A stretch of DNA of 32,000 nt from Trichlorobacter lovleyi SZ (GTDB lineage: Bacteria > Desulfobacterota > Desulfuromonadia > Geobacterales > Pseudopelobacteraceae): positions 780,001 to 812,000 of the forward strand of contig NC_010814.1 in NCBI RefSeq assembly GCF_000020385.1. The letters are read 5' to 3'. The position numbers and the translations under genes are program-made. Shown here in pieces: positions 2,038-31,864 of this stretch. Below the pieces are notes generated by a model, which was given only the letters and a program-made list of their open reading frames with translations, was not told the DNA's origin and did no database searches. Within the stretch, counting starts at the first letter, position 1. Each line of letters starts with the position of its first letter.

Positions 2038-2065
2038 TTCTATACGGAACGTAAGGAGAAATTCG

Positions 2066-2584: not shown

Positions 2585-2599
2585 GCACAGGTGGTTAAG

Positions 2600-3637: not shown

Positions 3638-3640
3638 GCA

Positions 3641-4093
3641 ATGGAACCAACTATGCCGATGGATGTGAACGCCATCATGAAGATTTTACCCCACCGTTTT
3701 CCGTTTCTGCTGGTGGACCGGATTGTGGAGCTTGAGCACGGCAAGCGTTGTGTCGGTATCAAGAATGTCAGCATCAATGAGCCGTTCTTCCCCGGTCATT
3801 TTCCCGGCCATCCGGTTATGCCCGGCGTACTGATTGTTGAGGCAATGGCACAAGTCGCCGGTATTATGGCATATCTTGCGTCTGATGACGAAACCAGAAA
3901 AAAGGTCAGTTATTTTATGGCCATTGACAGCGCCAAGTTTCGCAAGCCGGTCATGCCGGGTGATCAACTTCGGATCGAGATCACCACAACCATGAACCGT
4001 CGCGGCATCTGGGGGGTTGATGGTAAGGCATTTGTTGACGACAAGCTGGTGACCGAGGCCTCACTCAAGGCCACCTTTGCTCCGGCAGAATAG
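3641..4093 (+). CDS. fabZ: 3-hydroxyacyl-ACP dehydratase FabZ
   Basis: Canonical motifs [13 protein letters not shown] and [29 protein letters not shown] lies upstream at 3629-3634. Length 150 aa. Confidence 0.96.
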
Positions 4094-4106
4094 ACAGGGA
4101 GAGACC

Positions 4107-12059: not shown

Positions 12060-13139
12060 ATGAAGAGTTCCCAACATGCTGAAATAGCCGGGCAGGCTGC
12101 CGTACAGAGGGTGCTGGTCCGGGCGGTTAACTGGATTGGTGACGCGGTCATGACCACTCCGGCGCTTATGGCAGTACGGGAAACCTATCCCCGGGCAGAG
12201 ATTACGCTGCTGGCCAACCCGCTGGTGGGACAACTGCTGCAGGGGCATCCGGCACTGGATCGGGTTATGCTGTTTGATCGTAAGTTAAAGCACCGTGGTC
12301 TGCTGGGGCGGTTGCGTCTGGCACGGCAACTGGCTGCGGAACGGTTCGATCTGGCGGTTATCCTGCCCAACTCCTTCGATTCTGCCCTGATCCCCTGGCT
12401 GGCAAGGATTCCGGTACGGATCGGCAAGGCCTCGGATGGACGCAGTCTGCTGTTGACCCACCGTTTTTACGAGCAGTCGCCGTCTGCAGAGCGGCACGAG
12501 GTGCAGTATTATTGTGAGCTGCTGGCGGCATTCGGCATCTCTGCTGAACAGTCGACACCAACACTCGCCGTCACTGCTCAGGAGGAGCAAGAGGTCTCAA
12601 CGCTGCTGGCAGAACATGGCATCTCTGCAGAGGAGATGGTACTTGGTGTCAATGCCGGTGCCAGTTTCGGCTCGGCAAAACGCTGGTACCCGGAACGGTT
12701 TGCCAACGTTGCCCAACGCCTTGCCGCCTCGTGGGGGGCGCGGGTTATCCTGTTCGGCGGCCCGGATGAGCAGGAGCTCGTGGCGGTGATCGAGCGGGAA
12801 ATGGCAGGAAACTGTCTGAATCTGGCAGGTAAGACCACGGTTCGTCAACTGATGGCGTTGATCAACCGCTGCAACTTTTTTGTCACCAATGATTCCGGGC
12901 CGATGCATATTGCTGCTGCCTTTGGCGTGCCGTTGGTGGCGATTTTTGGTCCCACGGACCATAGGGGTACGGCTCCCTGCTCTGATAAGGCGGTGATTGT
13001 GCGCCAGACGATTGACTGTGCCCCTTGTAAATTGCGGGTCTGTCCGACCGACCACCGTTGCATGACGGCGGTGACGGTGGAGGATGTAGTGAAGTCTGCA
13101 AACCTGTTATGGAAGAACAAAGGAGTCAAGACACGATGA
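12060..13139 (+). CDS. waaF: ADP-heptose:LPS heptosyltransferase II (GT9), WaaF-like
   Basis: By-eye alignment to E. coli WaaF along the whole length: [96 protein letters not shown]. Confidence 0.85.
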
Positions 13140-14218
13140 AGAAGGCTTTGATCACCGGTATCACCGGCCAGGACGGTGCCTATCTGGCCGAACTGCTGCT
13201 TGAGAAGGGGTATGAGGTCCACGGCATCAAGCGGCGTGCCTCCCTGTTCAACACCGACCGGATTGACCATCTCTATCAGGACCCCCATGAAAAGGGGCGC
13301 CGGTTGGTCCTGCACTACGGAGACATGACCGACTCCACCAACCTGATCCGGATCATTCAGGCCGTGCAACCGGACGAGATCTACAACCTGGCAGCCCAGT
13401 CCCATGTTGCCGTCTCCTTTGAGACCCCTGAATACACCGCCAATGCCGACGCCATCGGTCCTTTGCGGATTCTGGAGGCGATCCGGATCTTGGGGCTTGA
13501 GAAAAAGACCCGCTTCTACCAGGCCTCCACCTCCGAACTCTACGGCCTGGTCCAGGAAATTCCCCAGAAGGAAACCACCCCCTTCTATCCCCGGTCCCCC
13601 TATGCCGTAGCCAAACTCTACGCCTACTGGATCACCGTCAACTACCGCGAAGCCTACGGCATCTACGGCTGCAACGGCATCCTCTTCAACCATGAATCAC
13701 CGTTGCGGGGAGAAACCTTTGTCACCCGCAAGATCACCCGTGCCCTGGCCCGGATCAAACTGGGGCTTCAGGACTGCCTCTACCTGGGCAACCTTGACTC
13801 CCTGCGGGACTGGGGCCATGCCAAAGACTATGTCGAAATGCAATGGCTGCTGATGCAACAGGAGCACCCTGAAGACTGGGTCATTGCCACCGGTATCCAG
13901 CACAGCGTCAGAGAGTTCGTCAATGCCGCCGCTGAAGAACTTGGGATGAAAATCAGCTGGCAGGGCAGTGGAATCGATGAAACCGGTACCGACCAAAGCG
14001 GTAGAGTGATTGTCAGGGTTGATCCCCGTTACTTCCGTCCCACCGAAGTCGAAACCCTGCTGGGAGATCCGGGCAAGGCCCGTGAGAAACTGGGCTGGAC
14101 GCCGAAGATCAGCTTTAAGGAACTGGTTGCCGAAATGGTTCGTGAAGATCTGAAGGCAGCTGAACGGGATGAGCTGGTCAAAAAGCACGGCTACCAGGCG
14201 TTTGACTATAATGAGTAG
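13136..14218 (+). CDS. gmd: GDP-mannose 4,6-dehydratase
   Basis: [56 protein letters not shown] (YxxxK), [20 protein letters not shown]. The internal ATG at 13136 (ATGA overlap with waaF) was chosen over the ORF-track start at 13058. Confidence 0.95.
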
Positions 14219-15986: not shown

Positions 15987-16739
15987 ATGCCGATATCCGC
16001 CACCATCATCACCCTGAATGAAGGAGACAACATCGCTGACTGTCTTGCCGCTCTTGATTTTGTTGACGAGATCATCGTGCTTGATTCCGGCAGCTCCGAT
16101 CAAACGGAAGAGCTGTGCCGGGCCTGTCCCAAGGTCCGCTTTTATCATCAGGAGTGGCTGGGGTACGGGAGACAGAAAAACCGGGCCGCAGAACTGGCCC
16201 GGCATGACCTGATCCTGAATGTCGATGCCGATGAACGGGTCTCACCGCAGTTGCGGCGTTCAATCGAACAGTTCGACAGCAGCAGTTTTGCTGCGGCACG
16301 CATGGCGCGGGAAAACTATTTTGGCCGGCGCTGGATCCGGCACTGCGGCTGGTATCCTGACTATTCCAGCCGTCTGTATGATCGCCGTCGCTGCTCCTTC
16401 AGTGAACGTGCGGTGCATGAATCGCTGCAGACTGCCGGAGCGGTTGCCACGCTTGCAGGGAATCTGGTTCACTACACCTACAACGGCGTGGGTGACTACC
16501 TGGAGCGTATGAACAGGTATTCGACGCTGGCGGCAGAAGAGTACCATCGCGCCGGTAAAACCGCTGGACTGCTCCGGATGCTGGTCAAGCCGGTTGCCAC
16601 GTTTATCAAGATGTATCTGCTGCGCAGGGGCTTTCTGGATGGCCGGACCGGGTTGGTGCTGTCACTGCTCTATGCCGTCTACACCTTCTGTAAATATGCA
16701 AAACTGTCAGAGCTTAACGCTGAAGAACACCGAAAGTAG
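15987..16739 (+). CDS. Family 2 glycosyltransferase, LPS core type (KdtX/WaaE-like)
   Basis: ISATIITLNEGDNIADCLAALDFVDEIIVLDSGSSDQTEE, DxD-type motif NVDADE, C-terminal amphipathic/hydrophobic tail. Immediately downstream of msbA. Confidence 0.8.
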   Translation: MPISATIITLNEGDNIADCLAALDFVDEIIVLDSGSSDQTEELCRACPKVRFYHQEWLGYGRQKNRAAELARHDLILNVDADERVSPQLRRSIEQFDSSSFAAARMARENYFGRRWIRHCGWYPDYSSRLYDRRRCSFSERAVHESLQTAGAVATLAGNLVHYTYNGVGDYLERMNRYSTLAAEEYHRAGKTAGLLRMLVKPVATFIKMYLLRRGFLDGRTGLVLSLLYAVYTFCKYAKLSELNAEEHRK

Positions 16740-16746
16740 CCGCGCT

Positions 16747-17682
16747 ATGCCCAAACTCTATATTGAAGAATTTGTGGGAATAACCAATCGTCTGGAGACG
16801 CTGCCGCTGGCCTTTGCCATCCAGCAGGAGTTCGGCCACGATATCGTGCTTGACTGGCGGGAGCTTGACTCGTTTGAGGTTGAGGGAACCAGGCAGGGGC
16901 GTGTGACCTGGCTGACAAAGCTGGGGGCCGAACGGGTCAGGAACTGTGATGAGGCTGTCTTTAACGGACTGCGGGGGAAAAAGATCCTGCTGCGCTCACT
17001 GGACGGCCCTCCGCAGCGGCTGGACCCGATCTACATGCAGATCCCGCCGAAGCTGCATCTGAAACAGCATCTTGCCGATGCGGTCCGGGAGACATTTGCC
17101 AAAACGGCCGGCCGGCCGGTGGTGGGGGTGCATATCAGACACGGCGATTTCCAGGTTATTGATGCTGACAGCTACCGTATCGATGGCTATGAATGGCCTG
17201 CCGTGCCGGTCTGGTGGTATGAAAAGGCCATGGAGGCGCTGGTCCGTAAAAATCCGGAGATCTGTTTTTTCCTCTCCTGCACCGGTGACCCTGCCGCATA
17301 CGAGTCGCTGATGAAAAACTTTGACCTGATCACCCTCAACCAGGCATCGCATTACGCTTACAAGAATGCCGGTAATGATCACCATTCCCTCATCAACCCG
17401 GTGGCCGACCTCTTTGCCCTGGCCTGCTGTCCGGTGGTACTGGCAACACCGATCTCCGGCTATTCCCACTGGGCTGCCAACGTGCTGGGAGTGCCGGCAA
17501 CCTGTCTGGTCCCCCTGCCCGGGGCAACCAGAACAACGCCGGCAATCGGGATGGTAAATATCCATGGCAGCCGTTTGCCGCGCTGGAGAGCCGCCGGTCG
17601 TACCGGAAGCGATACCGTTGCACTGGACGATGACCTGGCAGGGCTTGAACTCGGCCAAACTGCGGATACCGGGTGGCTGTAA
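16747..17682 (+). CDS. Uncharacterised protein with GT11/GT23-type (fucosyltransferase-like) motifs
   Basis: VGVHIRHGDF resembles the HxRRGD(Y/F) motif of alpha-1,2-fucosyltransferases. It is followed by FFLSCTGD (compare the SDD motif) and ADLFALACCPVVLATPISGYSHWAA (compare the Cxx..NStFSWWaA motif). The internal ATG at 16747 was chosen over the ORF-track start at 16594, which overlaps the previous gene. Confidence 0.5.
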   Translation: MPKLYIEEFVGITNRLETLPLAFAIQQEFGHDIVLDWRELDSFEVEGTRQGRVTWLTKLGAERVRNCDEAVFNGLRGKKILLRSLDGPPQRLDPIYMQIPPKLHLKQHLADAVRETFAKTAGRPVVGVHIRHGDFQVIDADSYRIDGYEWPAVPVWWYEKAMEALVRKNPEICFFLSCTGDPAAYESLMKNFDLITLNQASHYAYKNAGNDHHSLINPVADLFALACCPVVLATPISGYSHWAANVLGVPATCLVPLPGATRTTPAIGMVNIHGSRLPRWRAAGRTGSDTVALDDDLAGLELGQTADTGWL

Positions 17683-20530: not shown

Positions 20531-21460
20531 ATGAATATATTACTCTATCACTTTGGGTATCGCGGAGACATACTTGTTGTGGGACAGCACTTTACCCGAG
20601 AGCTGCTTACTCGCTACCCGCATGCCGATATAGACCTGATGGTGCGTCCAAGGATGGTTGAAGCCGGTGACTTCATGATGCCTTTGGGGGTGTACCGGGA
20701 TATACTTTGGGGAGAGAAAAAGGATTTCCATCTCTCCAAAGAGTCGTATGATCTTGCGTACATGATCGATGAAAATGTGTATCCTGAAGGAAATCTGAGA
20801 ACTCCATTCACTAAAGCAGGTTTCCCGTTCCGGCATCACAAATTGTCGTTAACAGTGATGCCGGAGGACAAAGCTCTGGCAACCCGTATTATTGCAGACC
20901 TCCCCCGTCCCATCATCGCTGTCCAGTCGGATATGTCAAGGAAATGGCCTGCTGAGCGATGTGCTGCACTTAATCAGCGACTTGCAGCTCTTGGCAGTTT
21001 GGTAACTCTCGGTCCAGATGAACGATATCCATCCTGTGAAAAACCACTTTCGTTTCTGCAGTCGGCAGCCCTTGCCGCCTCAGCTGACATATTCGTTGGA
21101 ATTGACTCGGGAATAGCCCACGCTGCGGCACTGATGGGGGTTCAAACGGTTTTGATTCCTCCCGTTTTTCCCGAATCCTGGATCTCGCCAACGGAATACG
21201 CCAATCCGTTTATTGCCGATGAAGCCTGCAGACATATTAGCATCCGTCCGCACCCTGAAGATTTTTGCGGGCATTATTTCTGCCTACGCCCAACGGCGCA
21301 AGGTGGTATCCAACCGCCGGGTGGTAACTCCTTATTGGTAAAATGTAGATGGAAAAAACGGTTCGGAATCTTCAAAGGGAACAGCTGTTTTAACAAAATC
21401 TCGGTGGACGCGTTATATGATGTGGTTGTCGCTGCCATGAAGAAACGCAGGCTGATCTGA
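20531..21460 (+). CDS. GT9-like glycosyltransferase (short heptosyltransferase-family member)
   Basis: N-terminal ILLYHFGYRGDILVVGQHFTRELLTRYPHADIDLMV and C-terminal IFVGIDSGIAHAAALMGVQTVLI match the two GT9 signature regions. At 309 aa it is shorter than canonical WaaC/WaaF. Confidence 0.6.
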   Translation: MNILLYHFGYRGDILVVGQHFTRELLTRYPHADIDLMVRPRMVEAGDFMMPLGVYRDILWGEKKDFHLSKESYDLAYMIDENVYPEGNLRTPFTKAGFPFRHHKLSLTVMPEDKALATRIIADLPRPIIAVQSDMSRKWPAERCAALNQRLAALGSLVTLGPDERYPSCEKPLSFLQSAALAASADIFVGIDSGIAHAAALMGVQTVLIPPVFPESWISPTEYANPFIADEACRHISIRPHPEDFCGHYFCLRPTAQGGIQPPGGNSLLVKCRWKKRFGIFKGNSCFNKISVDALYDVVVAAMKKRRLI

Positions 21461-21500
21461 GCCTCATTAGGTGTATACTGCGTAAAATATGAGGTCATGC

Positions 21501-22541
21501 ATGTCTAATGTGAAAATCATAGTTATCACGCTGGTAAAGGATGAGGCCTGGATGCTTGACAGGTTTCTTGCCACTTGCAGTGTGTTTGCCGACCACATTA
21601 TCGTGTCGGACGAGAGTACGGGGCTCGACAGCAGTCTCGAAATTTATAAAAAATATCCGAAAGTGACGCTGCACCACAACTCAGGAGCGCCCGTACGGGG
21701 AGACATCCGAAGAAAATTCGTCTTCGACGAGGCCCGCAAGATCTCCTGCGACAAGCGGATCATTATCGCGATAGACTCGGACGAGATTCTTTCCGCCAAT
21801 CTGCTGCACAGTCCGGAATGGCAGACTGTCCTTGCCGCGGAGCCGGGCACCCTCTTTCATCTGCAGTGGGTGAGTTTATGGAAGAATTGCAATTATTACC
21901 GGGTTGAAGCCAAGTATCAATTCGGCGGCTATAACCGGCAAATTTGGATAGACGACGGCGTTTCCGAAATCCCTGCCATCGGATATCAGGAAATGCATAT
22001 GGCATACAATCCCCTCCATGCCAGAACGCACGTATACCTCAACGAGATTGTTTGTTTGCACTATCAGTATTGCAATTGGGAGCGAATGGAGTCAAAGCAC
22101 CGCTACTATCGTGCCCATGAGAAGGCTGATATCGGGAAACTTTCAGACATAGCAATTTATCGGATATACGGCCATGCACATTCACGAAAGATTGAAGTCA
22201 AACCCTCGCTTTCTTGTTGGTTTGATGGTTGGATCTCCAGGGGGATTGACATGACAAGTACAGCGCGTGATGAGCTCACTCACTTTGATATAAGTGTGTT
22301 GAGACTATTTGAATCTCATGGGGCGGGCTTCTTTCTTAACCAGGATTTATGGAAGGTTGATTGGGAGTACCTTACAAATCGCGCCAAGGAGCTTGGATTG
22401 TTATCCGCTGATTTTAAGTATACACGGCCTCCAAAGACGATCCGAAGCAGATTGTTTCACGCGTACATGAAAACGGCTTTTGATGTTAAAATTTTGAAAT
22501 CAGTTGAAAAAAGATTATTTCCAAAAGGTCGTGTATATTAA
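21501..22541 (+). CDS. Putative GT-A fold glycosyltransferase (family 2-like), otherwise uncharacterised
   Basis: VKIIVITLVKDEAWMLDRFLATCSVFADHIIVSDESTG and the DxD-type motif IIAIDSDEIL. ATG 21501 has GAGG 6 nt upstream, so it was preferred over ATG 21489. Confidence 0.5.
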   Translation: MSNVKIIVITLVKDEAWMLDRFLATCSVFADHIIVSDESTGLDSSLEIYKKYPKVTLHHNSGAPVRGDIRRKFVFDEARKISCDKRIIIAIDSDEILSANLLHSPEWQTVLAAEPGTLFHLQWVSLWKNCNYYRVEAKYQFGGYNRQIWIDDGVSEIPAIGYQEMHMAYNPLHARTHVYLNEIVCLHYQYCNWERMESKHRYYRAHEKADIGKLSDIAIYRIYGHAHSRKIEVKPSLSCWFDGWISRGIDMTSTARDELTHFDISVLRLFESHGAGFFLNQDLWKVDWEYLTNRAKELGLLSADFKYTRPPKTIRSRLFHAYMKTAFDVKILKSVEKRLFPKGRVY

Positions 22542-22577: not shown

Positions 22578-23351
22578 ATGAAAGTAGTCATTCTTGCCGG
22601 CGGTTTTGGCACACGTATTAGCGAAGAGTCCCATCTGAAACCAAAACCGATGATTGAAATCGGAGAACGGCCGATACTTTGGCATATCATGAAGACTTAT
22701 TCCCACTATGGATTTAACGATTTTATCATATGCTTGGGCTACAAGGGGTACTGCATTAAGGAGTACTTTGCTCATTATTTCCTTCATGAGTCCGATGTCA
22801 CCTTTGATTTTACCAATGAGAATCAAAGAATAATACACAACCATTCTGCAGAACCGTGGCGTGTCACTCTGGTGAATACTGGCATTGAAACCATGACCGG
22901 TGGTCGGGTTAAGAGAATCAGCAGATATATCGGCGATGAGCCGTTTATGCTCACCTATGGCGATGGTGTTGCAGATATAAGTATTGATAATTTGGTGGAA
23001 TATCATAAAAAGCACGGTAAGCTTGCTACGGTTAGCTCTATTCAGCCAGCCGGACGTTTTGGAGCCCTCGATCTTGATGCGGATAACCTGATCCATGGAT
23101 TCAAGGAAAAGCCCAAAGGTGATGGAGCCTGGATTAATGGTGGTTTTTTCGTGATGCAGCCGGAAGTGTTCAGGTATATCGACGGGGACACTACTGTTCT
23201 GGAGAGGGAACCGCTTGAGAGATTAGCACACGATGGACAGTTAGTGGCTTACAAGCATACTGGTTTCTGGCAACCGATGGATTCAATGCGGGATAAAAAT
23301 CAGCTTGAAGAACTATGGAAAACCGGGTCTGCCCCCTGGAAGGTGTGGTAA
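22578..23351 (+). CDS. rfbF: Glucose-1-phosphate cytidylyltransferase
   Basis: MKVVILAGGFGTRISEESHLKPKPMIEIGERPILWHIMKTYSHYGFNDFIICLGYKGY, LTYGDGVADI and FWQPMDSMRDK are near-canonical RfbF/DdhA motifs. GGAGA precedes the ATG. Confidence 0.95.
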   Translation: MKVVILAGGFGTRISEESHLKPKPMIEIGERPILWHIMKTYSHYGFNDFIICLGYKGYCIKEYFAHYFLHESDVTFDFTNENQRIIHNHSAEPWRVTLVNTGIETMTGGRVKRISRYIGDEPFMLTYGDGVADISIDNLVEYHKKHGKLATVSSIQPAGRFGALDLDADNLIHGFKEKPKGDGAWINGGFFVMQPEVFRYIDGDTTVLEREPLERLAHDGQLVAYKHTGFWQPMDSMRDKNQLEELWKTGSAPWKVW

Positions 23352-24424
23352 TGGGGTTCTGGCAAAACAAGAAAGTCTTTGTCACCGGTCATACCGGATT
23401 CAAAGGAAGTTGGCTGACTCTTTGGCTGCTCAAGCTTGGTGCCGAGGTGCATGGTTATGCTCTGGAACCGCCAACCGAGCCGAGTCTCTTCAACCTGTTG
23501 GGCCTCAACTCTCCCTCCCCACAACTTTCCAGTCAGATTGCCGATATCCGAGATAGCTCCGCTCTTGCAACTGCTATACAGCAAGCCCAGCCGGAAATTG
23601 TCATTCATATGGCAGCTCAACCGTTGGTACGAGATTCGTACCTTATTCCTGTAGACACTTATGCTATTAACATCATGGGCACAGTTAATATGCTTGAGGC
23701 GATTCGCCACTGTCCAAGCGTCAGGGCGGTGGTCAATGTTACTACTGACAAGTGTTACGAAAATAGGGAATGGGTCTGGGGATATCGCGAAGACGAGCCG
23801 ATGGGGGGATTTGATCCCTACTCCAGCAGTAAAGGGTGTTCAGAGCTGGTCACTGCAGCATACCGGCAATCATATTTTAACTCCCGACAACCCACGCAGC
23901 ATGGAGTAGCGTTGGCCTCCGCCAGAGCGGGTAATGTGATTGGGGGCGGTGATTGGGCAGCCGACCGACTGGTTCCTGATATTGTCCGGGCTTTGTTGAA
24001 TAAGGAACCGGTTAGCATTCGCAATCCCCTTGCTGTTCGCCCCTGGCAACATGTTCTTGAACCACTTTCCGGCTATTTATGTCTGGCACGGCACCTATAT
24101 GAGCATGGAACTGCCTTTGCTGAGGGCTGGAACTTCGGACCAGCGGATGAAGATGCCAAGCCGGTCGCCTGGATTGTCGATCATCTCTGCAAGCTTTGGG
24201 GCAATTCAGCCTCATATACAATCGTTAGTGGTGATCACCCCCATGAAGCTCAGTATCTGAAACTGGATTGCTCCAAAGCAAAGATGCGTCTGGGCTGGAA
24301 ACCGCGATGGAATCTGGAAACTGCGCTGGAACAGGTTGTTACATGGACAAAGGCATATAGCAAAAAGGAGTCGATACGCACCATATGTCTGAACCAAATA
24401 GCGAGTTACGAGGCTCAAGCGTAA
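23351..24424 (+). CDS. rfbG: CDP-glucose 4,6-dehydratase
   Basis: FWQNKKVFVTGHTGFKGSWLTLWLLKLGAEVHGY, TTDKCYEN, DPYSSSKGCSE (YxxxK), RAGNVIGGGDW. TAATG junction with rfbF at 23351. The ORF-track start at 23315 overlaps rfbF. Confidence 0.94.
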   Translation: MGFWQNKKVFVTGHTGFKGSWLTLWLLKLGAEVHGYALEPPTEPSLFNLLGLNSPSPQLSSQIADIRDSSALATAIQQAQPEIVIHMAAQPLVRDSYLIPVDTYAINIMGTVNMLEAIRHCPSVRAVVNVTTDKCYENREWVWGYREDEPMGGFDPYSSSKGCSELVTAAYRQSYFNSRQPTQHGVALASARAGNVIGGGDWAADRLVPDIVRALLNKEPVSIRNPLAVRPWQHVLEPLSGYLCLARHLYEHGTAFAEGWNFGPADEDAKPVAWIVDHLCKLWGNSASYTIVSGDHPHEAQYLKLDCSKAKMRLGWKPRWNLETALEQVVTWTKAYSKKESIRTICLNQIASYEAQA

Positions 24425-24444
24425 TTCGAATTGAGGAGTATGTT

Positions 24445-25785
24445 TTGAGTACAGACCAGAAAGAACTGCTACGACAGCGCGTGGTGAAAGCCGCATGTGA
24501 ATATTATCAGCATGCTCACGTTCACCATAAAGAATTTGAACCTGGGGACCGCATTCCATACGCAGGCAGAATTTTTGATGATGCGGAAATAAGTGCCTTG
24601 ATCGATTCGTCCCTTGAGTTCTGGCTCACTAGCGGTCGATATGCGGAAAAATTCGAAAAAGAGTTTGCTGATTATATCGGCGTGCAGCATTGCTCACTGA
24701 CCAACTCGGGTTCGTCGGCCAATTTACTGGCTTTTATGGCCCTTACTTCTCCAAAACTTGGAGAGCGCAGGATACATAGGGGGGATGAGGTCATCACTGT
24801 AGCTGCAGGCTTCCCTACAACAGTTGCGCCTATCATCCAGTACGGCGCAGTGCCGGTTTTCGTAGATGTCTGTCTGCCCACTTACAATATTGATGTCACC
24901 CGGCTTGATGCCGCCCTTTCTGATAAAACCAAGGCGGTCATGGTTGCCCATACTCTTGGCAATCCCTTTGACATCACCGCAGTGAAGGCGTTTTGCGACA
25001 AGCACAACCTGTGGCTTATAGAAGACAACTGTGATGCCCTTGGGTCACGCTATTTATTTAGAGGTCAATGGTGCTATACCGGCACGATCGGGCATATCGG
25101 CACCTCTAGTTTCTACCCGCCTCACCACATGACTATGGGGGAGGGGGGCGCGGTTTATACCAATGATCCCTTGATAAAGCGCCTGATCGAATCGTTTCGT
25201 GACTGGGGACGTGACTGTTGGTGCCCGTCAGGACGGGACAACACCTGCAGTAACCGCTTTGGTCAGCAGTTTGGTGAACTGCCGTTTGGGTACGACCATA
25301 AGTATGTCTACTCCCACTTCGGCTATAATCTGAAGGTGACTGATATGCAGGCTGCCATTGGCTGTGCTCAACTACAAAAACTGCCCGGTTTTGTTGAAGC
25401 ACGCAAACGAAACTGGCAGATGCTGCGAGATGGACTGGCAGATCTGCAGGATCAACTTATTTTGCCAGAGGCGGCTGAAAACAGCGACCCTTCCTGGTTT
25501 GGGTTCCTGCTGACTGTACGTAGGGAATCAGGATTTACACGGGATAGATTGGTTGCCCAGCTTGAATTGCACGGCATTCAAACCCGTATGCTCTTTGCCG
25601 GTAATCTGACCAAGCACCCTTGCTTTGATGAGATGCGAAAAAGCGGTGAAGGGTATCGAGTGGCGGATGATCTTTCTGTAACTGACCAGATTATGCGTGA
25701 TACTTTCTGGGTAGGGGTGTATCCGGGGATGACGGAGCCAATGATTGAGCATATGATCAGTGTTATGAGGCAGCAGTTGAGGTGA
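24445..25785 (+). CDS. rfbH: CDP-4-keto-6-deoxy-D-glucose 3-dehydrase (E1; RfbH/DdhC/AscC type, PMP and Fe-S dependent)
   Basis: By-eye alignment to Salmonella RfbH over the whole length: LTNSGSSANLLAFMALTSPKLGERR, GDEVITVAAGFPTTVAP, SFYPPHHMTMGEGGAV (His replaces the aminotransferase Lys), DWGRDCWCPSGRDNTCSNRFGQQFG (Fe-S cysteines), YNLKVTDMQAA, DPSWFGF. TTG 24445 lies 6 nt after GAGGAG and is preferred. The ORF-track ATG at 24385 overlaps rfbG by 40 nt. Confidence 0.9.
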   Translation: MSTDQKELLRQRVVKAACEYYQHAHVHHKEFEPGDRIPYAGRIFDDAEISALIDSSLEFWLTSGRYAEKFEKEFADYIGVQHCSLTNSGSSANLLAFMALTSPKLGERRIHRGDEVITVAAGFPTTVAPIIQYGAVPVFVDVCLPTYNIDVTRLDAALSDKTKAVMVAHTLGNPFDITAVKAFCDKHNLWLIEDNCDALGSRYLFRGQWCYTGTIGHIGTSSFYPPHHMTMGEGGAVYTNDPLIKRLIESFRDWGRDCWCPSGRDNTCSNRFGQQFGELPFGYDHKYVYSHFGYNLKVTDMQAAIGCAQLQKLPGFVEARKRNWQMLRDGLADLQDQLILPEAAENSDPSWFGFLLTVRRESGFTRDRLVAQLELHGIQTRMLFAGNLTKHPCFDEMRKSGEGYRVADDLSVTDQIMRDTFWVGVYPGMTEPMIEHMISVMRQQLR

Positions 25786-25786
25786 T

Positions 25787-26665
25787 ATGAATATTTTTTT
25801 AACGGGTGGTAGCGGCTTTATTGGAAAAAATATTATCGAGACGCTAGGCGGTACATACAATATAATTGCCCCGTCAAGTAAGGAACTCGACCTGACGGAT
25901 GAACAGGCTGTTCAAACGTTCTTCCGTGTGAATTCAATTGATATTGTCATTCACGGCGCTGTCAAGCCAGGGCACCGTAATGCTAAAGACCCGTCCAATC
26001 AGCTGTATGTAAATACGCGGATGTATTTTAATATCGTTCGGAATGCAGGAAGATTCCAACGCCTGATTTTTCTTGGGTCGGGGGCTGTGTACGACGTCAG
26101 TCAATCAATAGCAAAAGTGGATGAAGATACCTTTGACACCCATGTGCCGGCAGACGAACATGGCTTTTCGAAATATATTATTGCCAAACATATAAAACAC
26201 CTGAATGATGCTGTCGCGTTGAATATTTTTGGTATATTTGGAAAATATGAGGATTACGCGATCCGATTCATATCCAATGCCATTTGCAAGGCCCTTTTTG
26301 ATCTCCCTATTACCATCAGGCAAAACCGGCTATTTGATTATCTCTATATTGATGATCTTATGCCGGTATTAGAGCATTTCATTCATAACAAACCCCTATC
26401 CTCCACTTACAATGTAACACCAGAGTCTTCAGTTGAGCTGACAACCGTTGCAGAACTGGTTAGAGCCCGTTCTGGGAAAGATCTGCCCATCGTGGTTGCC
26501 ACCCATGGGCTTGGTTTGGAATACAGCGGCAGCAATGCAAGGCTTTGCTCTGATCTTCCTCAAATGGCGTTTACGCCGCTTGTCGCAGCAATAGACTCCT
26601 TGTACTCGTGGTACGAACAACAAAAAGACAGCATTAACCGTGATGCACTTTTAACTGACAAATAG
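25787..26665 (+). CDS. Extended-SDR NAD(P)-dependent sugar-nucleotide reductase, GDP-fucose-synthase (Fcl)-like; candidate 4-keto or branch-keto reductase (YerF-like role)
   Basis: IFLTGGSGFIGKNI Rossmann motif. KELDLTDEQAVQTFFRVNSIDIVIHGAVKPG parallels Fcl ([31 protein letters not shown]). LIFLGSGAVY parallels LLFLGSSCIY. Catalytic YxxxK is in SKYIIAKH, and there is a YLYIDDL motif. Sits between rfbH and the ThDP enzyme. Confidence 0.7.
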   Translation: MNIFLTGGSGFIGKNIIETLGGTYNIIAPSSKELDLTDEQAVQTFFRVNSIDIVIHGAVKPGHRNAKDPSNQLYVNTRMYFNIVRNAGRFQRLIFLGSGAVYDVSQSIAKVDEDTFDTHVPADEHGFSKYIIAKHIKHLNDAVALNIFGIFGKYEDYAIRFISNAICKALFDLPITIRQNRLFDYLYIDDLMPVLEHFIHNKPLSSTYNVTPESSVELTTVAELVRARSGKDLPIVVATHGLGLEYSGSNARLCSDLPQMAFTPLVAAIDSLYSWYEQQKDSINRDALLTDK

Positions 26666-26718: not shown

Positions 26719-28515
26719 ATGGAAATGAAGGTTTCAGATTACATTGCGTCATTTATGGTTGAAAACGGCATCACCGACCTGTTTACCGTGACGGGTGGTG
26801 GTGCAATGCACCTTAATGATTCATTGGGTAACCATCCTGAGCTGGTTTCAACCTATAACCATCATGAGCAGGCATGTGCAATTGCGGCAGAAGCGTATGC
26901 CCGGCTAACCGGCAGGATTGCTTTGGTCTGTGTGACCAGTGGTCCTGGTGGCACCAATGCGATTACTGGTGTTATGGGAGGGTGGGTCGATTCAATCCCG
27001 ATGTTTGTAATTTCGGGGCAAGTTAAGTTTTCAACAACTATTGCTTCTACCAACGTGCCGCTTCGACAGTTAGGGGACCAAGAGTTTAATATCGTCGATT
27101 CCGTGCGGTGTATGACCAAGTATGCAGTGATGTTGACGGAGCCTGAGTCCATTGCCTACCACCTTGAGCGAGCTCTCTTCCTTGCCGGACATGGCAGGCC
27201 AGGCCCTGTGTGGCTTGACATCCCGCTGAATGTACAGGGGGCTCTCATTGAAACAGATGCGCTCCAGCATTACGACCCGTCTGAAGATGCTGTTCAGGTG
27301 GTTGCGCCACCTTCCAATGATGTGTATTCCCAGCTTATTGAAAAAATTTGTAATGCCCGAAAACCTGTAATACTCGCCGGTAGCGGTATTCGTCTTTCCG
27401 GTAGTCATGATGTCTTTATACAGCTACTTGAAAAACTTAACATCCCTGTTGTCACAGCGTGGAATGCCCATGACAATCTATGGGACGATCACCCCTTGTA
27501 TTGTGGGCGTCCAGGCACTATCGGCACACGAGGCGGTAATTTTGTTGTCCAAAACTGTGACCTGCTGCTATCGCTTGGTTGCCGGATGAATATTCGCCAG
27601 ATAAGTTATAATTGGGAAAATTTTGCGAAAGATGCGTATCTCGTCGCCGTAGATATTGATGCGGGAGAATTGAAAAAGCCAACATTAACAGTAGATATGC
27701 CGATTCATGCGGATTTGGGTGATTTTTTGCCGGGGCTGCTTGGGGCGATGCAAGCCGATCATAAGCTTGGAAATATCGAATGGTTGGAGTGGTGTCGGAA
27801 GATAAACCAGAAGTATCCTGCGGTACAGCCCCATCACTACACCCCCCACTCTCCAGTCAACCCGTATGTTTTCATGGACAGGCTCTCACAGTATCTTGAT
27901 GAGGGAGATGTGACCGTGACAGGAAACGGCAGTGCCTGTGTGTGCTCATTCCAGGCCATGGTTATCAAAAAAAATCAGCGGCTCTTCACAAACTCAGGGT
28001 GTGCCAGCATGGGCTACGGTCTTCCCGCTGCGCTTGGTGCTGCTGTCGCTCTTGGCGGCAAACGGGTAATCTGCCTTGACGGTGATGGTAGTATTCAGAT
28101 GAATTTGCAGGAGTTACAGACTATTATTCACAATAAACTCAACTTGAAAATATTCTGGTTAAATAACGACGGGTACCACTCCATTCGTCAAACCCAAACC
28201 AATATTTTTAATGCGAGGTTTTGCGGCGTAAATGAAACCAGCGGTATAAGTTTTCCCAGTGCGGATAAAATTGCACGAGCATATGGTTTTGAATTTATTA
28301 AAATTGATGCCGTTGAAGACATGGATGAAAAAATAAAGAAAGTCTTGCTATCGGATACCTCTATTGTGTGCGAAGTGATTCTAAATCCTGCTCAGGGGTT
28401 TGAGCCCAAGTTGTCTTCACGCATACTTCAGGACGGTACAATGGTTTCGCCATCGCTTGAAGACATGTTTCCATTTTTGAGCGCTGAAGAAATGAAAATG
28501 AATGCTTACAAATAA
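26719..28515 (+). CDS. Thiamine-diphosphate-dependent enzyme, acetolactate-synthase large-subunit-like (YerE-like candidate C-branching enzyme)
   Basis: N-terminal Pyr domain (DLFTVTGGGAMHLNDS, HEQACAIAAEAYARLTG, VTSGPGGTNAITGV). C-terminal ThDP-binding motif GDGSIQMNLQELQTI...NNDGY (28081-28174). Length 598 aa. ATG 26719 has GAGG 8 nt upstream. Confidence 0.85.
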   Translation: MEMKVSDYIASFMVENGITDLFTVTGGGAMHLNDSLGNHPELVSTYNHHEQACAIAAEAYARLTGRIALVCVTSGPGGTNAITGVMGGWVDSIPMFVISGQVKFSTTIASTNVPLRQLGDQEFNIVDSVRCMTKYAVMLTEPESIAYHLERALFLAGHGRPGPVWLDIPLNVQGALIETDALQHYDPSEDAVQVVAPPSNDVYSQLIEKICNARKPVILAGSGIRLSGSHDVFIQLLEKLNIPVVTAWNAHDNLWDDHPLYCGRPGTIGTRGGNFVVQNCDLLLSLGCRMNIRQISYNWENFAKDAYLVAVDIDAGELKKPTLTVDMPIHADLGDFLPGLLGAMQADHKLGNIEWLEWCRKINQKYPAVQPHHYTPHSPVNPYVFMDRLSQYLDEGDVTVTGNGSACVCSFQAMVIKKNQRLFTNSGCASMGYGLPAALGAAVALGGKRVICLDGDGSIQMNLQELQTIIHNKLNLKIFWLNNDGYHSIRQTQTNIFNARFCGVNETSGISFPSADKIARAYGFEFIKIDAVEDMDEKIKKVLLSDTSIVCEVILNPAQGFEPKLSSRILQDGTMVSPSLEDMFPFLSAEEMKMNAYK

Positions 28516-28524
28516 GGGTTACCA

Positions 28525-30120
28525 ATGAAATCTATTCAAATTCTTGATTGTACGCTACGTGACGGCGGTTTTGTCAATGACTGGAATTTTGGGCTGGGAA
28601 GCATGAAAAGCATTATCAGTCGGTTGGATAAAGCCGGCGTTGATATGGTTGAAATAGGCTTTATTGACGAGCGGCGTTCATATGATCCAAACAGGGCAAT
28701 TCAACCGGATACCCAGTCATTTCAAGCGGTATTACAGGGTCTTGATATCCGCAACTCATTGATACTTGGTATGGTTGATTATGGCACTTGCGACATTGAT
28801 AAGATAGCCCCCAAAGAGCATTCATATATCGACGGGATCAGGGTTATTTTTAAGAAAAAAGATCAAGATGCTGCACTCCGGTATCTGCAACAGATTAAGG
28901 CCAAAGGTTACAAAATATATGTTAACCCGGTATCTATTACTGGATACTCAGATGAAGAAATCTGCTCACTAATAGGCAAAATAAACGGTCTTGACCCTGA
29001 AGGGGTCTCTATTGTTGATACTTACGGGCTTATGCACCGGAAGGATCTCCTGCACTATTTCCGGCTGTTCGATAAATACCTGAGCAATCACATTACTTTA
29101 GGATACCATGCGCATAATAATTTCCAGCTTGTTTACGCGAATTCGATAGAGCTATGCGAATTGTTGGGTGAACGCAATATTATTATTGACAGTTCTCTCT
29201 ATGGCATGGGCAAAGGTGCGGGGAATGCAAATACCGAATTGATCGCCATGTACTACAATGAAAATATTAACAGCAAGTATGAAGTAGAACATCTGCTTGA
29301 AGCAATTGATGTTGATATTCTTAAGGAATATGCTAAGGCCCCGTGGGGTTATTCGCTGTCGTATTATCTTGCTGCATCTAACGACTGCCATCCTGATTAT
29401 GCGAAGTATTTGCTATCAAAGAAGACACTTGCGGTTAAGTCAGTCAATGAACTGCTTACTTCCCTGCCAGTTACCCATAAGCTGGCATTCAACAGAGAAC
29501 TGATTGAAAGGCTATATGTAGAATACCAGGACGTAGCTTGTAATGATGCCGCTGCTTATAGAAGACTTGCTGCAGAGATAACAGGCCGTAAGGTTCTTCT
29601 TATTGGGCCAGGTGCGTCCATAGTTAATGATGCAGATGCTATAATGTCTTATATTAAACAGAATAGTCCCGTCCTTATTTCAATTAATTTTATTAATGAC
29701 ATGTACCCTATTGACTATGTATTCATGGGAAATTCAAAAAGGTACAGCCAGTTTTTCCATAATCTGCATGGTACTAACAGAAACGCAAAAATAATTACGA
29801 CCTCAAATATTACGGCTTCTGGTGAGCATATTGACTTCGTATTCAACTATGGAAAACTTCTTGACGAGACTGAGGTTGTAAGAGACAACCCACTGCTTAT
29901 GATGTTAAACATATTAACTAAATTAGGCTGTGTAGATGTGACAATTGCCGGATTTGATGGCTATGACCAGAACGTAGCGCAGAATTACTATGATCAATAT
30001 ATTCCATTCTTATACTGTCATGATAACGTGCTGTTGAGAAATAGCGCTATAGCTAATAAACTTAAAGTTATTTCAAAAGATATGTCTATTCGTAGTATTA
30101 CCAAAACATTGTATTTATAA
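28525..30120 (+). CDS. Two-domain fusion: N-terminal DRE-TIM metallolyase (HMGL-like aldolase/pyruvate carboxyltransferase domain) plus C-terminal DUF115 (MptE/Maf)/GT42-sialyltransferase-like domain
   Basis: N-terminal domain: ILDCTLRDGG (metal-binding Asp), GYHAHNN (HxH metal ligands), GMGKGAGNANTEL. C-terminal domain, from about residue 345 (nt ~29557): VLLIGPGASI...VLISINF...YVFMGN and LNILTKLGCVDVTIAGFDGY. This parallels the GxGPS / N / G-x-D-x-Y layout of DUF115 and Cst-type transferases, as recalled from memory. Confidence 0.65.
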   Translation: MKSIQILDCTLRDGGFVNDWNFGLGSMKSIISRLDKAGVDMVEIGFIDERRSYDPNRAIQPDTQSFQAVLQGLDIRNSLILGMVDYGTCDIDKIAPKEHSYIDGIRVIFKKKDQDAALRYLQQIKAKGYKIYVNPVSITGYSDEEICSLIGKINGLDPEGVSIVDTYGLMHRKDLLHYFRLFDKYLSNHITLGYHAHNNFQLVYANSIELCELLGERNIIIDSSLYGMGKGAGNANTELIAMYYNENINSKYEVEHLLEAIDVDILKEYAKAPWGYSLSYYLAASNDCHPDYAKYLLSKKTLAVKSVNELLTSLPVTHKLAFNRELIERLYVEYQDVACNDAAAYRRLAAEITGRKVLLIGPGASIVNDADAIMSYIKQNSPVLISINFINDMYPIDYVFMGNSKRYSQFFHNLHGTNRNAKIITTSNITASGEHIDFVFNYGKLLDETEVVRDNPLLMMLNILTKLGCVDVTIAGFDGYDQNVAQNYYDQYIPFLYCHDNVLLRNSAIANKLKVISKDMSIRSITKTLYL

Positions 30121-30131
30121 GGTTGCGTCAA

Positions 30132-30797
30132 ATGGGAAAGACAGTATTTATAACTGGTGGTAGTAGAGGTATTGGCAAAGCGATAGTTGATGCATTTTCC
30201 AGAAATGGATATACAATAATAGCGCCAACAAGGGCTGAAATGGACCTTTCTTCTGATAGTTCAGTATTGAATTATTTTGAACGTAACAAAATACAAGTTG
30301 ATTGTATTGTCAATAATGCTGGTATAAATCCACTATCTCAAATTGAAAATGTAAATGATTGCGATATTGAAGAAGCTATAAATATTAATCTTAAAGCACC
30401 TATACTCATTGTGAGATCTCTTGTCTCGAGTATGAAAGAACGGAAATACGGACATATTGTTAATGTCTCATCTATTTGGGGAGTAGTTTCAAAAGAAAAG
30501 AGAACAGTTTATTCAATTACAAAAAATGGCTTACATGGTCTTACCAACACACTCGCCGTTGAGCTTGGCGCGTATAACATCCTCGTAAATACCGTATGTC
30601 CAGGTTTCACTAATACGGAGCTTACTAAAAAGAATGTCTCCACTGATGAGGCAAAAGCTATTGCCACAAATATTCCTCTCGGCAGATTTGCAGAGCCTGC
30701 TGAAATTGCTTCACTGATATATTTTCTTGGATCTGAACAAAATTCTTATATTACGGGTCAGAAAATAGTCATAGATGGAGGTTTTACAGTACTATGA
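30132..30797 (+). CDS. Classical short-chain dehydrogenase/reductase (FabG-like)
   Basis: TGGSRGIGKAIV (TGxxxGxG), NNAG, catalytic Ser in VNVSSIWG and YSITK (YxxxK), C-terminal GQKIVIDGGF. ATG 30132 was preferred over TTG 30123. Confidence 0.88.
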   Translation: MGKTVFITGGSRGIGKAIVDAFSRNGYTIIAPTRAEMDLSSDSSVLNYFERNKIQVDCIVNNAGINPLSQIENVNDCDIEEAININLKAPILIVRSLVSSMKERKYGHIVNVSSIWGVVSKEKRTVYSITKNGLHGLTNTLAVELGAYNILVNTVCPGFTNTELTKKNVSTDEAKAIATNIPLGRFAEPAEIASLIYFLGSEQNSYITGQKIVIDGGFTVL

Positions 30798-31864
30798 ATA
30801 TTAATTCTTATAATAAAACATACACTGTTGATACAGTAGATGTTATCGACTTGCAAAATTTTGTTGGTAGTTCTGTATACCTTATTGTTTTTGATAAGAA
30901 AGTGTATGATATATATAAAGGCACTGCTTTTAAGGACTTAGATGTAAGTAGAGCTGTTTTTTTAGAGGCCGATGAGAATTGTAAGACTATTGATACTGCT
31001 GTTGAAATATGCAAAATAATGGCTGATATTCCATTTAATAAAAATAGTATCTTAATATCTATTGGGGGGGGAATCATACAGGATATAACTGGGTTTGCTG
31101 CCAATATATACAATAGAGGGATACGATGGATTTTTATTCCAACTACTCTTCTTGCGCAATGTGATAGTTGTATAGGCGGCAAAACATCATTAAATCTTAT
31201 GAATTATAAAAATATTCTGGGAACATTTTATGCGCCGGACAGGATAATGATCGATTTGAATTTTGTAACCACCTTGTCAGAAGACGATTATTTAAGTGGA
31301 CTTGGAGAAGTGGCAAAATTCAATATAATGGCTGCACATGACGGTATAGAGCTACTCGAAAGACACATTGATAGGCTTCTGCACCGAGATATTGAATGTC
31401 TGCGTGCCTTTTTGAAACGTTCTTTGGAGTTTAAGAAAAAATTTATTGAAGAGGATGAGTTTGATAAGGGTGTACGTAACCTCCTTAATTTTGCCCATAC
31501 CTTTGGTCATGCTTTTGAGTCTGTAAGCCATTACGCCATCCCGCACGGTCAGGCAGTTACATTGGGTTTGCTGATGGCTAATATGATCTCCTTTGATCGT
31601 GGGCTTCTTGACCACAATCTGAAGTGTCGGATAGAAAAACTGTGTGTACGGCTAATTTCAGTAAAGCTTGACTACCATTGGTTTGAGCCGAGTAGTATTA
31701 TTGGGGCAATGAAGAGGGATAAAAAGAGGACATCTGAGCAGTTGACGGCAGTGCTCTTTAAAAGCGATTTAGGGCTTGAAATTGTTCATGACTTAAGGCC
31801 TGAAGAAGTAGAGCGAAGCTTGCTTGAGCTGATTTCGTATCTTAAATTGAGCAAGCTTTGCTAA
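30794..31864 (+). CDS. 3-dehydroquinate-synthase-like sugar phosphate cyclase / metal-dependent NAD oxidoreductase superfamily protein
   Basis: GGGIIQDITGFAANIYNRGIRWIFIPTTLLAQCDSCIGGKTSLN parallels the DHQS motif GGGvvgDlaGFaAatymRGvrfiqvPTTLLAqvDSSvGGKtgvN. YKNILGTFYAP is present. The three metal-ligand positions are conserved: GLGEVAKF (Glu), NFAHTFGHAFE (His), IPHGQAV (His). ATGA overlap with the SDR gene. Confidence 0.8.
   Translation: MNINSYNKTYTVDTVDVIDLQNFVGSSVYLIVFDKKVYDIYKGTAFKDLDVSRAVFLEADENCKTIDTAVEICKIMADIPFNKNSILISIGGGIIQDITGFAANIYNRGIRWIFIPTTLLAQCDSCIGGKTSLNLMNYKNILGTFYAPDRIMIDLNFVTTLSEDDYLSGLGEVAKFNIMAAHDGIELLERHIDRLLHRDIECLRAFLKRSLEFKKKFIEEDEFDKGVRNLLNFAHTFGHAFESVSHYAIPHGQAVTLGLLMANMISFDRGLLDHNLKCRIEKLCVRLISVKLDYHWFEPSSIIGAMKRDKKRTSEQLTAVLFKSDLGLEIVHDLRPEEVERSLLELISYLKLSKLC
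31064..31071 (+). repeat. Homopolymeric G8 tract inside the DHQS-like gene (codons 91-93, the GGG of the nucleotide-binding loop)
   Basis: Direct count: att then eight consecutive g at 31064-31071, in a gene that is otherwise very AT-rich. Confidence 0.95.

Follow-up and report, generated by a model that had tools for sequence, protein, structure and literature searches.

An aldolase fused to a DUF115-like domain in a CDP-sugar locus of Trichlorobacter lovleyi, and its proposed role in branched-sugar biosynthesis

The 32,000-nucleotide stretch of the Trichlorobacter lovleyi SZ genome analysed here (NC_010814.1, positions 780,001 to 812,000, forward strand; hereafter the window) is a single long lipopolysaccharide (LPS) region. 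Its last genes are, in order, rfbF, rfbG, rfbH, an epimerase/reductase-family gene, the gene for a thiamine diphosphate (ThDP)-dependent enzyme, the target of this study, a short-chain dehydrogenase/reductase (SDR) gene and a gene resembling that of 3-dehydroquinate (DHQ) synthase. The target gene (28525..30120, + strand, ATG start, stop codon at 30118-30120) encodes a 531-amino-acid (aa) protein in which an aldolase is fused to a DUF115-like domain. An earlier note on this DNA had described the open reading frame (ORF) and quoted motifs from both of its halves, and all are present exactly as given there. A protein homology search returned the T. lovleyi record of the identical protein under the name 'aldolase catalytic domain-containing protein'. 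A full-length AlphaFold2 (AF2) model, built on a 46-sequence alignment (mean pLDDT 84, pTM 0.73), comprises a beta/alpha barrel (residues ~1-262), a helical segment (~263-350) and an alpha/beta domain (~355-531). In our view the protein is a variant, widespread but uncharacterised, of a pathway logic that was described only recently, and it carries an additional domain of its own.

Residues 1-262 (28525..29310, + strand) form a class II aldolase barrel of the DRE-TIM (HMGL-like) type, as judged from Pfam, PDB matches and Foldseek. The Pfam model PF00682 matches residues 4-260 (E 6e-20, 72.2 bits against a gathering score of 29); together with the DmpG-type fold matches, this bears out what the earlier note had read in the N-terminal half. 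The motifs DCTLRDGG, GYHAHNN and GKGAGNANTEL lie at residues 8-15, 193-199 and 229-239, and the family motif DCTLRDGG[F/Y]xNxW is kept. R12, D13, H195 and H197, which are invariant in 46 homologues, align with R17, D18, H200 and H202 of DmpG, the catalytic arginine and metal ligands of that enzyme. The best PDB sequence match was 3dxi (E ~1e-24), a structural-genomics entry for BVU_2661 of Bacteroides vulgatus titled 'N-terminal domain of a putative aldolase'. It has the motif ILDCTLRDGGY..W.F in common with the target; the solved part is the N-terminal domain only, the title implies a longer parent, and no relevant paper on it was found in the literature search. DmpG-type aldolases came next (DmpG itself, 1nvm, 4e-13), and Foldseek with the full-length model likewise placed DmpG-type aldolases and 3dxi on top. 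Pfam and NCBIfam found no NeuB or DAHP_synth_1 domain in the protein.

Many metagenome annotations (JGI) label such proteins as 4-hydroxy-2-oxovalerate aldolases, and DmpG is the nearest characterised fold, so an ordinary catabolic enzyme of a meta-cleavage pathway had to be considered. DmpG and BphI (1nvm, 4lrs, 8ih7) do have the same barrel, the same Arg/Asp/His/His site and a helical region after the barrel. However, the target falls far below the cut-offs of the corresponding models (NF006049, 91.9 against 229 bits; TIGR03217, 78.8 against 286 bits), has Phe in place of His21, carries an extra 180-aa domain and lies in a biosynthetic setting inside an LPS locus. The annotated genes around the target, both in the window and in locus L001, which continues past the window end, include no acylating acetaldehyde dehydrogenase (DmpF/BphJ). 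The catabolic identity was rejected on scores, context and the missing His21, and we consider it barely credible.

Weak matches to models and structures of isopropylmalate, citramalate and homocitrate synthases raise a different prospect, that of a Claisen-type DRE-TIM enzyme joining an acyl-CoA to a 2-oxo acid under the control of a LeuA-like regulatory C-terminal domain. DRE-TIM synthases typically do carry C-terminal regulatory domains. Such an activity is nonetheless very unlikely here, since aldolase models and structures consistently score higher (92 bits, against 49 for the NCBIfam synthase models) and the surrounding genes belong to sugar-nucleotide and ulosonate metabolism rather than to amino-acid biosynthesis. 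The target also reads G-F/Y after RDG, where the synthase motif is E-Q.

Between the barrel and the last domain, AF2 predicts a helical linker or subdomain (residues 263-350; 29311..29574, + strand) at the position of the DmpG communication domain, and the Foldseek alignment of the target with 1nvm extends over ~350 columns. W274-G-Y276, C288-H-P290 and K299 of this linker occupy invariant columns of the family alignments. Residues 351-531 (29575..30117, + strand) then form an alpha/beta domain with a predicted nucleotide-binding fold, remotely DUF115/MptE-like and GT42-like. DmpG-type aldolases have no counterpart of this separate domain of ~180 aa, and the C-terminal half is thus more than a communication domain, as the earlier note had supposed. 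LLIGPGASI is found at residues 357-365, ISINF at 385-389 and TIAGFDGY at 473-480, and the conserved core consists of P362 and G363, N388, F400, R406, N428, G476-x-D478-G479, T526 and Y530. Because a full-length Foldseek search is dominated by the aldolase barrel, residues 336-531 were modelled alone; the AF2 prediction (pLDDT 86, pTM 0.86) is a helix-flanked parallel sheet.

No Pfam or NCBIfam model covers this C-domain. PF01973 (DUF115) was absent at E<=1 from the whole protein and from 24 C-domains, and NCBIfam was negative as well. The only Foldseek match below 1e-3 was SteA (9hmz, E 7e-4, TM 0.42). MptE (8sd5), the archaeal HPPK that is the founding member of DUF115, matched weakly (prob 0.80, E 0.07, TM 0.49/0.45), the other matches were generic Rossmann-like domains, and neither Maf nor Cst-II stood among the top 50. 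When a profile of 34 diverse C-domains (alignment A3; 27-37% identity to that of the target) was compared with PDB sequences, SteA, the GT42 sialyltransferase 9c08 and MptE took the first three places with non-significant E values of 0.1-0.3 (0.21 for 9c08).

Profile-profile comparison with hhalign was the more informative approach to the DUF115 relationship. Against a DUF115 glycosyltransferase profile, A3 aligned over 136-181 columns with Prob 88% and E 3.1e-6 at 9% identity; in control runs the E values were 0.4 with reversed profiles and 0.07-0.26 with seven alpha/beta families that occur in the same loci but are unrelated. The DUF115 profile held 8 sequences only, being anchored on a 282-aa protein of locus L088 with a precomputed PF01973 match and extended by iterative hidden Markov model (HMM) search. 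With Cst-II, whose sequence was verified against PDB 2wqq, the A3 alignment was weak (124 columns, motif order kept, Prob 26%, E 7e-4) and stopped at Cst-II residue 160, short of the catalytic base His188. Single-sequence comparisons were weak too (Prob 2.5% for alignment A2 with Cst-II, and 3.9% for A3 with the L088 PF01973 protein). The A3 and DUF115 profiles have three motifs in common, namely a Gly-Pro loop after strand 1, an Asn after strand 2 and a G-x-D after a helix-strand unit, and these positions (G363, N388, D478/G479) are the most conserved residues of the C-domain.

Members of PF01973 (the Maf flagellin glycosyltransferases, MptE) and of the GT42 sialyltransferases (Cst-II) show the same motif order on a parallel beta-sheet. 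The C-domain differs from them in its lack of a Pfam match, its ~9% identity, its shorter length (~180 aa), the absence of the GT42 lid region and its constant fusion to an aldolase. We conclude that, on profile and model comparisons, it is best regarded as a remote DUF115/MptE-like module that lies outside what PF01973 detects and is not demonstrably a sialyltransferase. The DUF115 assignment made in the earlier note therefore stands as remote homology, backed chiefly by the hhalign result, with SteA and MptE as the best, weak fold matches, but not as a direct Pfam or NCBIfam match. Its GT42/Cst-type assignment shrinks to a weak, suggestive profile link, with no Cst structure in the Foldseek top 50.

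The two modules had been taken to be normally separate, yet fusion is the rule in thousands of proteins. The protein hit list contains thousands of full-length homologues, of which the best 120 are 529-542 aa long and 53-78% identical at 98-100% query coverage; their hosts include Smithella, Desulfobacterales, Dehalococcoidales, Treponema and Methanosarcinales, among others. In species-representative genomes (tblastn, one genome per species) there are more than 590 fusion loci, a figure that is a lower bound. The 80 loci kept for comparison are the best tblastn matches (40-56% identical) rather than a random sample. They come mainly from Lachnospiraceae and Oscillospiraceae, with others from Treponema, Fusobacterium, Melainabacteria, Bacteroidales, Selenomonas, Pectinatus and Methanomassiliicoccaceae.

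Residues 298-531, used as a query without a filter, retrieved 751 cluster representatives. Among the best 150 of these, all 56 that reach at least 500 aa are aldolase fusions aligned from the N-terminus, and the shorter ones have start points scattered over the whole protein; fusion is therefore the normal state of the family. No convincing free-standing C-domain was found among the same 150. Apparent stand-alone C-domain proteins were dismissed as contig-edge fragments (P0126, for example, begins at base 10 of a 1.5-kb contig), and an aldolase joined to a KdsB-like domain (P0267), which has a chimeric-looking N-terminus and lies on a 1.8-kb contig, was set aside as a fusion and used as adjacency only. 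As the earlier note had anticipated, no characterised enzyme of this architecture was found in the literature searched, the survey of more than 200 YerE-like clusters by Krug et al. 2024 lying outside it. The same literature offered nothing relevant on MptE/DUF115 or on the glycolipids of Spirochaeta aurantia.

Directly upstream of the target, the ThDP enzyme (26719..28515, + strand, 598 aa; Pfam TPP_enzyme_N/M/C) is a YerE/JanthE-like carboligase whose best PDB matches are JanthE (8rph, 5e-124) and YerE (5ahk, 1e-75). Three genes of the CDP-dideoxyhexose pathway (CDP, cytidine diphosphate), also on the + strand, score above their NCBIfam cut-offs: rfbF, glucose-1-phosphate cytidylyltransferase (22578..23351; TIGR02623, 434 bits against 300); rfbG, CDP-glucose 4,6-dehydratase (23315..24424; TIGR02622, 520 against 278); and rfbH, the CDP-6-deoxy-4-keto-glucose 3-dehydrase or E1 (24385..25785; NF011936, 745 against 423). 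The locus context given in the earlier note is thereby confirmed. Between rfbH and the ThDP gene lies an NAD-dependent epimerase/reductase-family gene (25787..26665, + strand, 292 aa; Pfam Epimerase, E 1e-22, no NCBIfam equivalog), whose product is a candidate sugar or side-chain ketoreductase. The target is followed on the same strand by a FabG-like SDR gene (30123..30797; Pfam adh_short_C2, E 7e-45) and by an AroB-related, 3-dehydroquinate-synthase-like gene for a putative sugar-phosphate phospholyase (cyclizing) (30794..31864; TIGR04425, 440 bits against 400). Start sites are ambiguous for several of these genes. The mechanical ORF of the ThDP enzyme begins at GTG 26680 and encodes 611 aa, and the source-genome call and the homologues start 13 codons later, at 598 aa; rfbH could encode 466 or 446 aa and the SDR gene 224 or 221 aa.

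For comparison, the ORFs of 83 loci were called and BLAST-clustered by quick scripts, which also served for a rough neighbour-joining tree. In 62 of the 83, no more than 10 kb separates the fusion gene from a homologue of the window ThDP enzyme (45-64% identity), which mostly stands one or two genes downstream; rfbF, rfbG and rfbH each occur in ~40. A closer census took in the genes at most four positions from the fusion gene in 79 loci. There, the ThDP neighbour pointed out in the earlier note recurred in 58: ThDP with a HAD phosphatase gene in 24, ThDP alone in 20, ThDP with AroB-like and SDR genes as in the window in 11, ThDP with SDR only in two and ThDP with AroB-like only in one. The remaining loci had a CTP_transf_3 cytidylyltransferase gene with HAD (9), CTP_transf_3 alone (3), HAD alone (2) or none of these (7). 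ThDP and CTP_transf_3 genes were never found in the same locus, nor were HAD and AroB-like genes, and in 11 loci the SDR gene stands at +1 of the fusion gene together with an AroB-like gene. The HAD protein is closest to phosphoglycolate phosphatase; its gene comes after that of the fusion protein in 38 loci, and in L088 the two are joined into one.

ThDP-type loci span Clostridia, Spirochaetes, Bacteroidales, Negativicutes and Methanomassiliicoccaceae. Beside the ThDP gene, such loci (e.g. L005 13125-14499) often encode membrane-associated sugar transfer: a PgfS/ArnC-like GT2 protein occurs in 37 loci, GtrA in 14 and a GT87/PMT_2-type membrane transferase in 8. The recurrence of these genes suggests that many Gram-positive carriers place the branched sugar onto polyprenyl phosphate, flip it and attach it outside the cell.

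A second context emerged in 12 loci, where a KdsB- or PseF-like CTP_transf_3 gene adjoins the fusion gene and, in nine of the 12, a HAD gene directly follows it. None of the 12 has a ThDP gene within four genes, none has rfbH, and most are missing rfbF and rfbG; one KdsB-like representative scores above the KdsB subfamily cut-off. A DUF115-like glycosyltransferase is encoded in 7 of these 12 loci and in no ThDP-type locus. L088 carries, in order, a GT2 gene, a PF01973 gene, a CTP_transf_3 gene, a gene for a 751-aa triple fusion of aldolase, C-domain and HAD, a further GT2 gene and a flippase gene. The cassette from the PF01973 gene to the fusion gene (1277-5041) looks like a complete pathway to an activated sugar resembling sialic acid or 3-deoxy-D-manno-octulosonic acid (Kdo), linked to cytidine monophosphate (CMP), with no NeuB or KdsA. 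In a Gastranaerophilales metagenome-assembled genome (MAG), a protein with one SIS and two CBS domains, like the arabinose-5-phosphate isomerases KdsD/KpsF, is encoded upstream (L024 3919-4908), and L023 holds a gene of the same BLAST cluster. The L024 isomerase is a hint that the aldolase may take a pentose-5-phosphate as its acceptor. Ten flanking proteins of L024 and L055 included none with a NeuB or KdsA domain. Upstream of the cytidylyltransferase-aldolase-HAD cassette of a Fusobacterium MAG lies a gene for a 695-aa protein with an N-terminal GT2 domain (L010 7261-9348); its C-terminal region joins the DUF115-like profile at E 2.5e-92, and Pfam calls no PF01973 there.

In the neighbour-joining tree, which is rough, the cytidylyltransferase-type proteins are basal and the ThDP-type proteins form one large clade; the target groups with loci of Treponema and other spirochaetes. 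The two contexts call on the same protein. They have 64 conserved residues in common, and no class-specific residue was found at the thresholds used. Twelve of the 64 lie from D341 onward, and 11 of these 12, the conserved core given above, belong to the C-domain proper. Because the presence or absence of CDP-sugar or CMP-synthetase genes makes no difference to how well its residues are conserved, the C-domain probably does the same job in both settings. The most likely options, as far as homology can tell, are binding of a cytidine or adenine nucleotide for regulation or product hand-over, or phosphoryl transfer; a contribution to acceptor binding is also possible.

A common product may explain the two contexts. 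CMP-Kdo and CMP-sialic-acid synthetases activate 3-deoxy-2-ulosonic acids, YerE-like enzymes of the ErwE type take such acids through decarboxylation and transfer, and an acid of this kind would be the one feature that both contexts have in common; since the same conserved residues are found in both, a 3-deoxy-2-ulosonic acid is the product we propose. For the ThDP side, a precedent exists in erwiniose biosynthesis. The YerE-like enzyme ErwE does not accept pyruvate but works with 4-hydroxy-2-oxo acids (Steitz et al. 2022, PMC9306805), and the aldolase ErwI, acting before the ThDP step, was proposed as the source of its donor, 4-hydroxy-2-oxopentanoate (PMC9306805). The same flow from aldolase to ThDP donor has been proposed for caryophyllose and gastriose (PMC9306805). 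This precedent and the common ulosonic acid point to the N-domain as a keto-acid-forming aldolase. There is thus a somewhat better than even chance, in our judgement, that the fusion protein is a metal-dependent class II pyruvate aldolase running in the biosynthetic direction and supplying a keto acid to the ThDP carboligase.

The aldolase would condense pyruvate with an aldehyde; this partner is probably a short hydroxy-aldehyde or a phosphorylated sugar, and the product would be a 4-hydroxy-2-oxo acid, that is, a 3-deoxy-2-ulosonic acid. In T. lovleyi, RfbF, RfbG and RfbH would first provide CDP-4-keto-3,6-dideoxyhexose and the aldolase would then form the keto acid. The AroB-like phospholyase and the SDR might next strip its phosphate by elimination and reduction, which would leave a terminal deoxy group; a HAD phosphatase would hydrolyse the phosphate in most other genomes. 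The JanthE/YerE-like enzyme could subsequently decarboxylate the keto acid and transfer the acyl unit to C-4 of the CDP-keto-sugar, so that a long-chain C-branched 3,6-dideoxyhexose like erwiniose or caryophyllose would be made for LPS. In a minority of genomes, the same fusion would instead feed a CMP-ulosonate synthetase and a DUF115 transferase. The substrates and the order of steps in this scheme are read from the observed domains, their conservation and the gene neighbourhoods. A phosphorylated intermediate is implied by the HAD gene that lies after, and is once fused to, the fusion gene, and the mutual exclusion of HAD and AroB-like plus SDR genes fits two alternative ways of removing one phosphate.

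The set of genes resembles those for erwiniose (ErwI/ErwJ with ErwE) and caryophyllose (MMAR_2331 with MMAR_2332), in which an aldolase gene likewise stands beside genes for a YerE-like ThDP enzyme and for CDP-4-keto-3,6-dideoxyhexose (PMC9306805). There, a hydroxylated 2-oxo acid made by the aldolase becomes the C-4 side chain, as is proposed here. The aldolases themselves are unlike the target: ErwI is of the BphI type and has an acetaldehyde dehydrogenase as its partner, MMAR_2331 is a member of the aldolase/citrate lyase family, and a DUF115-like domain is reported for neither (PMC9306805). Moreover, the target is partnered by AroB-like and SDR proteins or by HAD, unlike in erwiniose, which suggests a phosphorylated sugar-like acceptor, and its family also occurs without a ThDP enzyme. 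The cytidylyltransferase loci have their own parallel in the KdsA-KdsC-KdsB pathway to Kdo and the NeuB-type pathways to sialic acid and KDN, whose logic of synthase, phosphatase and CMP-synthetase is mirrored in the 12 loci (with HAD in nine). The condensing enzyme would differ, being a pyruvate-dependent DRE-TIM aldolase instead of KdsA or NeuB, which depend on phosphoenolpyruvate (PEP), and the HAD protein is phosphoglycolate-phosphatase-like rather than of the KdsC type.

Several observations weigh against an aldolase that supplies the ThDP enzyme. The general base His21 of DmpG corresponds to Phe16 in the target and to F, Y or H in its relatives, so catalytic details must differ. With scores far below the 4-hydroxy-2-oxovalerate aldolase cut-offs, other DRE-TIM chemistry, such as a Claisen condensation, could be at work. 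Which aldehyde is used, and whether the product is phosphorylated, can be read from neighbouring genes only, and 20 ThDP-type loci have neither HAD nor AroB-like genes within four genes. Phosphate removal by the AroB-like enzyme and the SDR is conjecture; were the AroB-like enzyme to cyclise its substrate, in the manner of DHQ synthase, the product would cease to be a 2-oxo acid and the scheme would fail. Finally, RfbH requires an E3 reductase (AscD/RfbI), and no gene for one was found in the window or among the L001 genes called in the 10 kb downstream.

The earlier note had raised a more intimate coupling, read here as one in which the aldolase acts on the cytidine-linked sugar itself and the DUF115-like domain holds the CDP moiety; a pyruvate enolate might, for example, be added to the 4-keto group of CDP-4-keto-3,6-dideoxyhexose, or to an acetyl branch that the ThDP enzyme has installed. 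The target gene does adjoin rfbFGH and the ThDP gene, and its C-domain is remotely homologous to DUF115/GT42-type domains, which bind cytidine-nucleotide sugars. However, 12 loci encode this fusion, its conserved residues unchanged, with no ThDP gene within four genes, without rfbH and mostly without rfbF and rfbG, beside a CMP-ulosonate-synthetase-like gene and often a HAD phosphatase gene. HAD and AroB-like partners indicate a phosphorylated small intermediate rather than a nucleotide sugar, and in the only studied analogue the aldolase precedes a ThDP enzyme that rejects pyruvate (PMC9306805). Direct chemistry on the CDP-sugar is thus not favoured and appears unlikely.

The C-domain could also be an enzyme in its own right, either a DUF115/GT42-type glycosyltransferase or an MptE-like pyrophosphokinase, while the N-domain makes the ulosonic acid. 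Of all positions in the domain, those of the G-P, N and G-x-D motifs, which it has in common with DUF115, vary least, being invariant or nearly so, and its best fold matches are MptE and SteA. Furthermore, the cassettes have no kinase, yet a phosphatase or phospholyase follows the fusion gene. On the other side, cytidylyltransferase-type loci already hold a separate DUF115 transferase, and ThDP-type loci have no CMP-synthetase to supply a donor. It aligns with catalytic DUF115 members at 9% identity, and the catalytic His of Cst-II falls outside the aligned region. A bifunctional enzyme is accordingly quite improbable, although less so than the Claisen-type synthase considered above.

A broader version of the favoured scheme, in which the fusion supplies a keto acid, is possible but tentative. 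The family could be an unrecognised synthase of sugar-like 3-deoxy-2-ulosonic acids that depends on pyruvate and not on PEP, with a product destined either for CMP-activation and transfer, as with sialic acid or Kdo, or for decarboxylative, ThDP-mediated grafting onto a CDP-keto-sugar, which would yield C-branched sugars of great length. The C-domain might then be catalytic or gating, for example through MptE-like phosphoryl transfer or sensing of cytidine nucleotides, and so tie the making of keto acids to the supply of nucleotide sugars.

Erwiniose, caryophyllose, gastriose, aurantose and other long C-branched sugars serve as surface antigens, and insight into how their side chains are made is at an early stage. 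If the proposed function is correct, this family would be the commonest side-chain-forming aldolase in branched-sugar loci. It is found in gut Clostridia, spirochaetes, Bacteroidales and some archaea, and its C-terminal half has no family model. The context of CMP-synthetase, HAD and DUF115 genes suggests that sugars resembling Kdo or sialic acid can be reached by a third route, one that starts from pyruvate. With the C-domain, the DUF115/GT42 superfamily would come to include a fusion partner that is not a transferase, and the pairing of an aldolase with a promiscuous YerE-like carboligase may be of biocatalytic interest for making chiral tertiary alcohols.

The rest of the window is devoted to LPS as well. 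Its first part holds bamA, lpxD, fabZ, lpxA, genes for a GFO/IDH/MocA oxidoreductase and a DegT aminotransferase, lpxB, a late acyltransferase gene and a PAP2 phosphatase gene; these are followed by waaA, lpxK, heptosyltransferase genes, gmd, an msbA-like gene and several glycosyltransferase genes. The oxidoreductase and aminotransferase genes between lpxA and lpxB (4889-6924) have a GnnA/GnnB-like arrangement, and the pair looks as if it would give lipid A built on 2,3-diamino-2,3-dideoxyglucose. In the core-oligosaccharide part, a guanosine diphosphate (GDP)-mannose 4,6-dehydratase gene (13058-14218) and an ORF with a weak match to the fucosyltransferase NodZ (16594-17682) hint that the core may hold fucose or another 6-deoxyhexose. 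Two ORFs of 309 and 350 aa upstream of rfbF (20531-22541) have no NCBIfam match, and Pfam gives a sub-threshold GT9 match to the first only; they may be uncharacterised glycosyltransferases for the branched sugar. Past the window end, L001 (13414-21596) encodes a DegT aminotransferase, a nucleotidyltransferase, a GHMP kinase, an epimerase, a split transketolase whose N and C halves are separate genes, a B12-binding radical SAM enzyme and a further aminotransferase. Split transketolases are another known route to two-carbon branches on keto-sugars, so this LPS locus may make a second unusual sugar.

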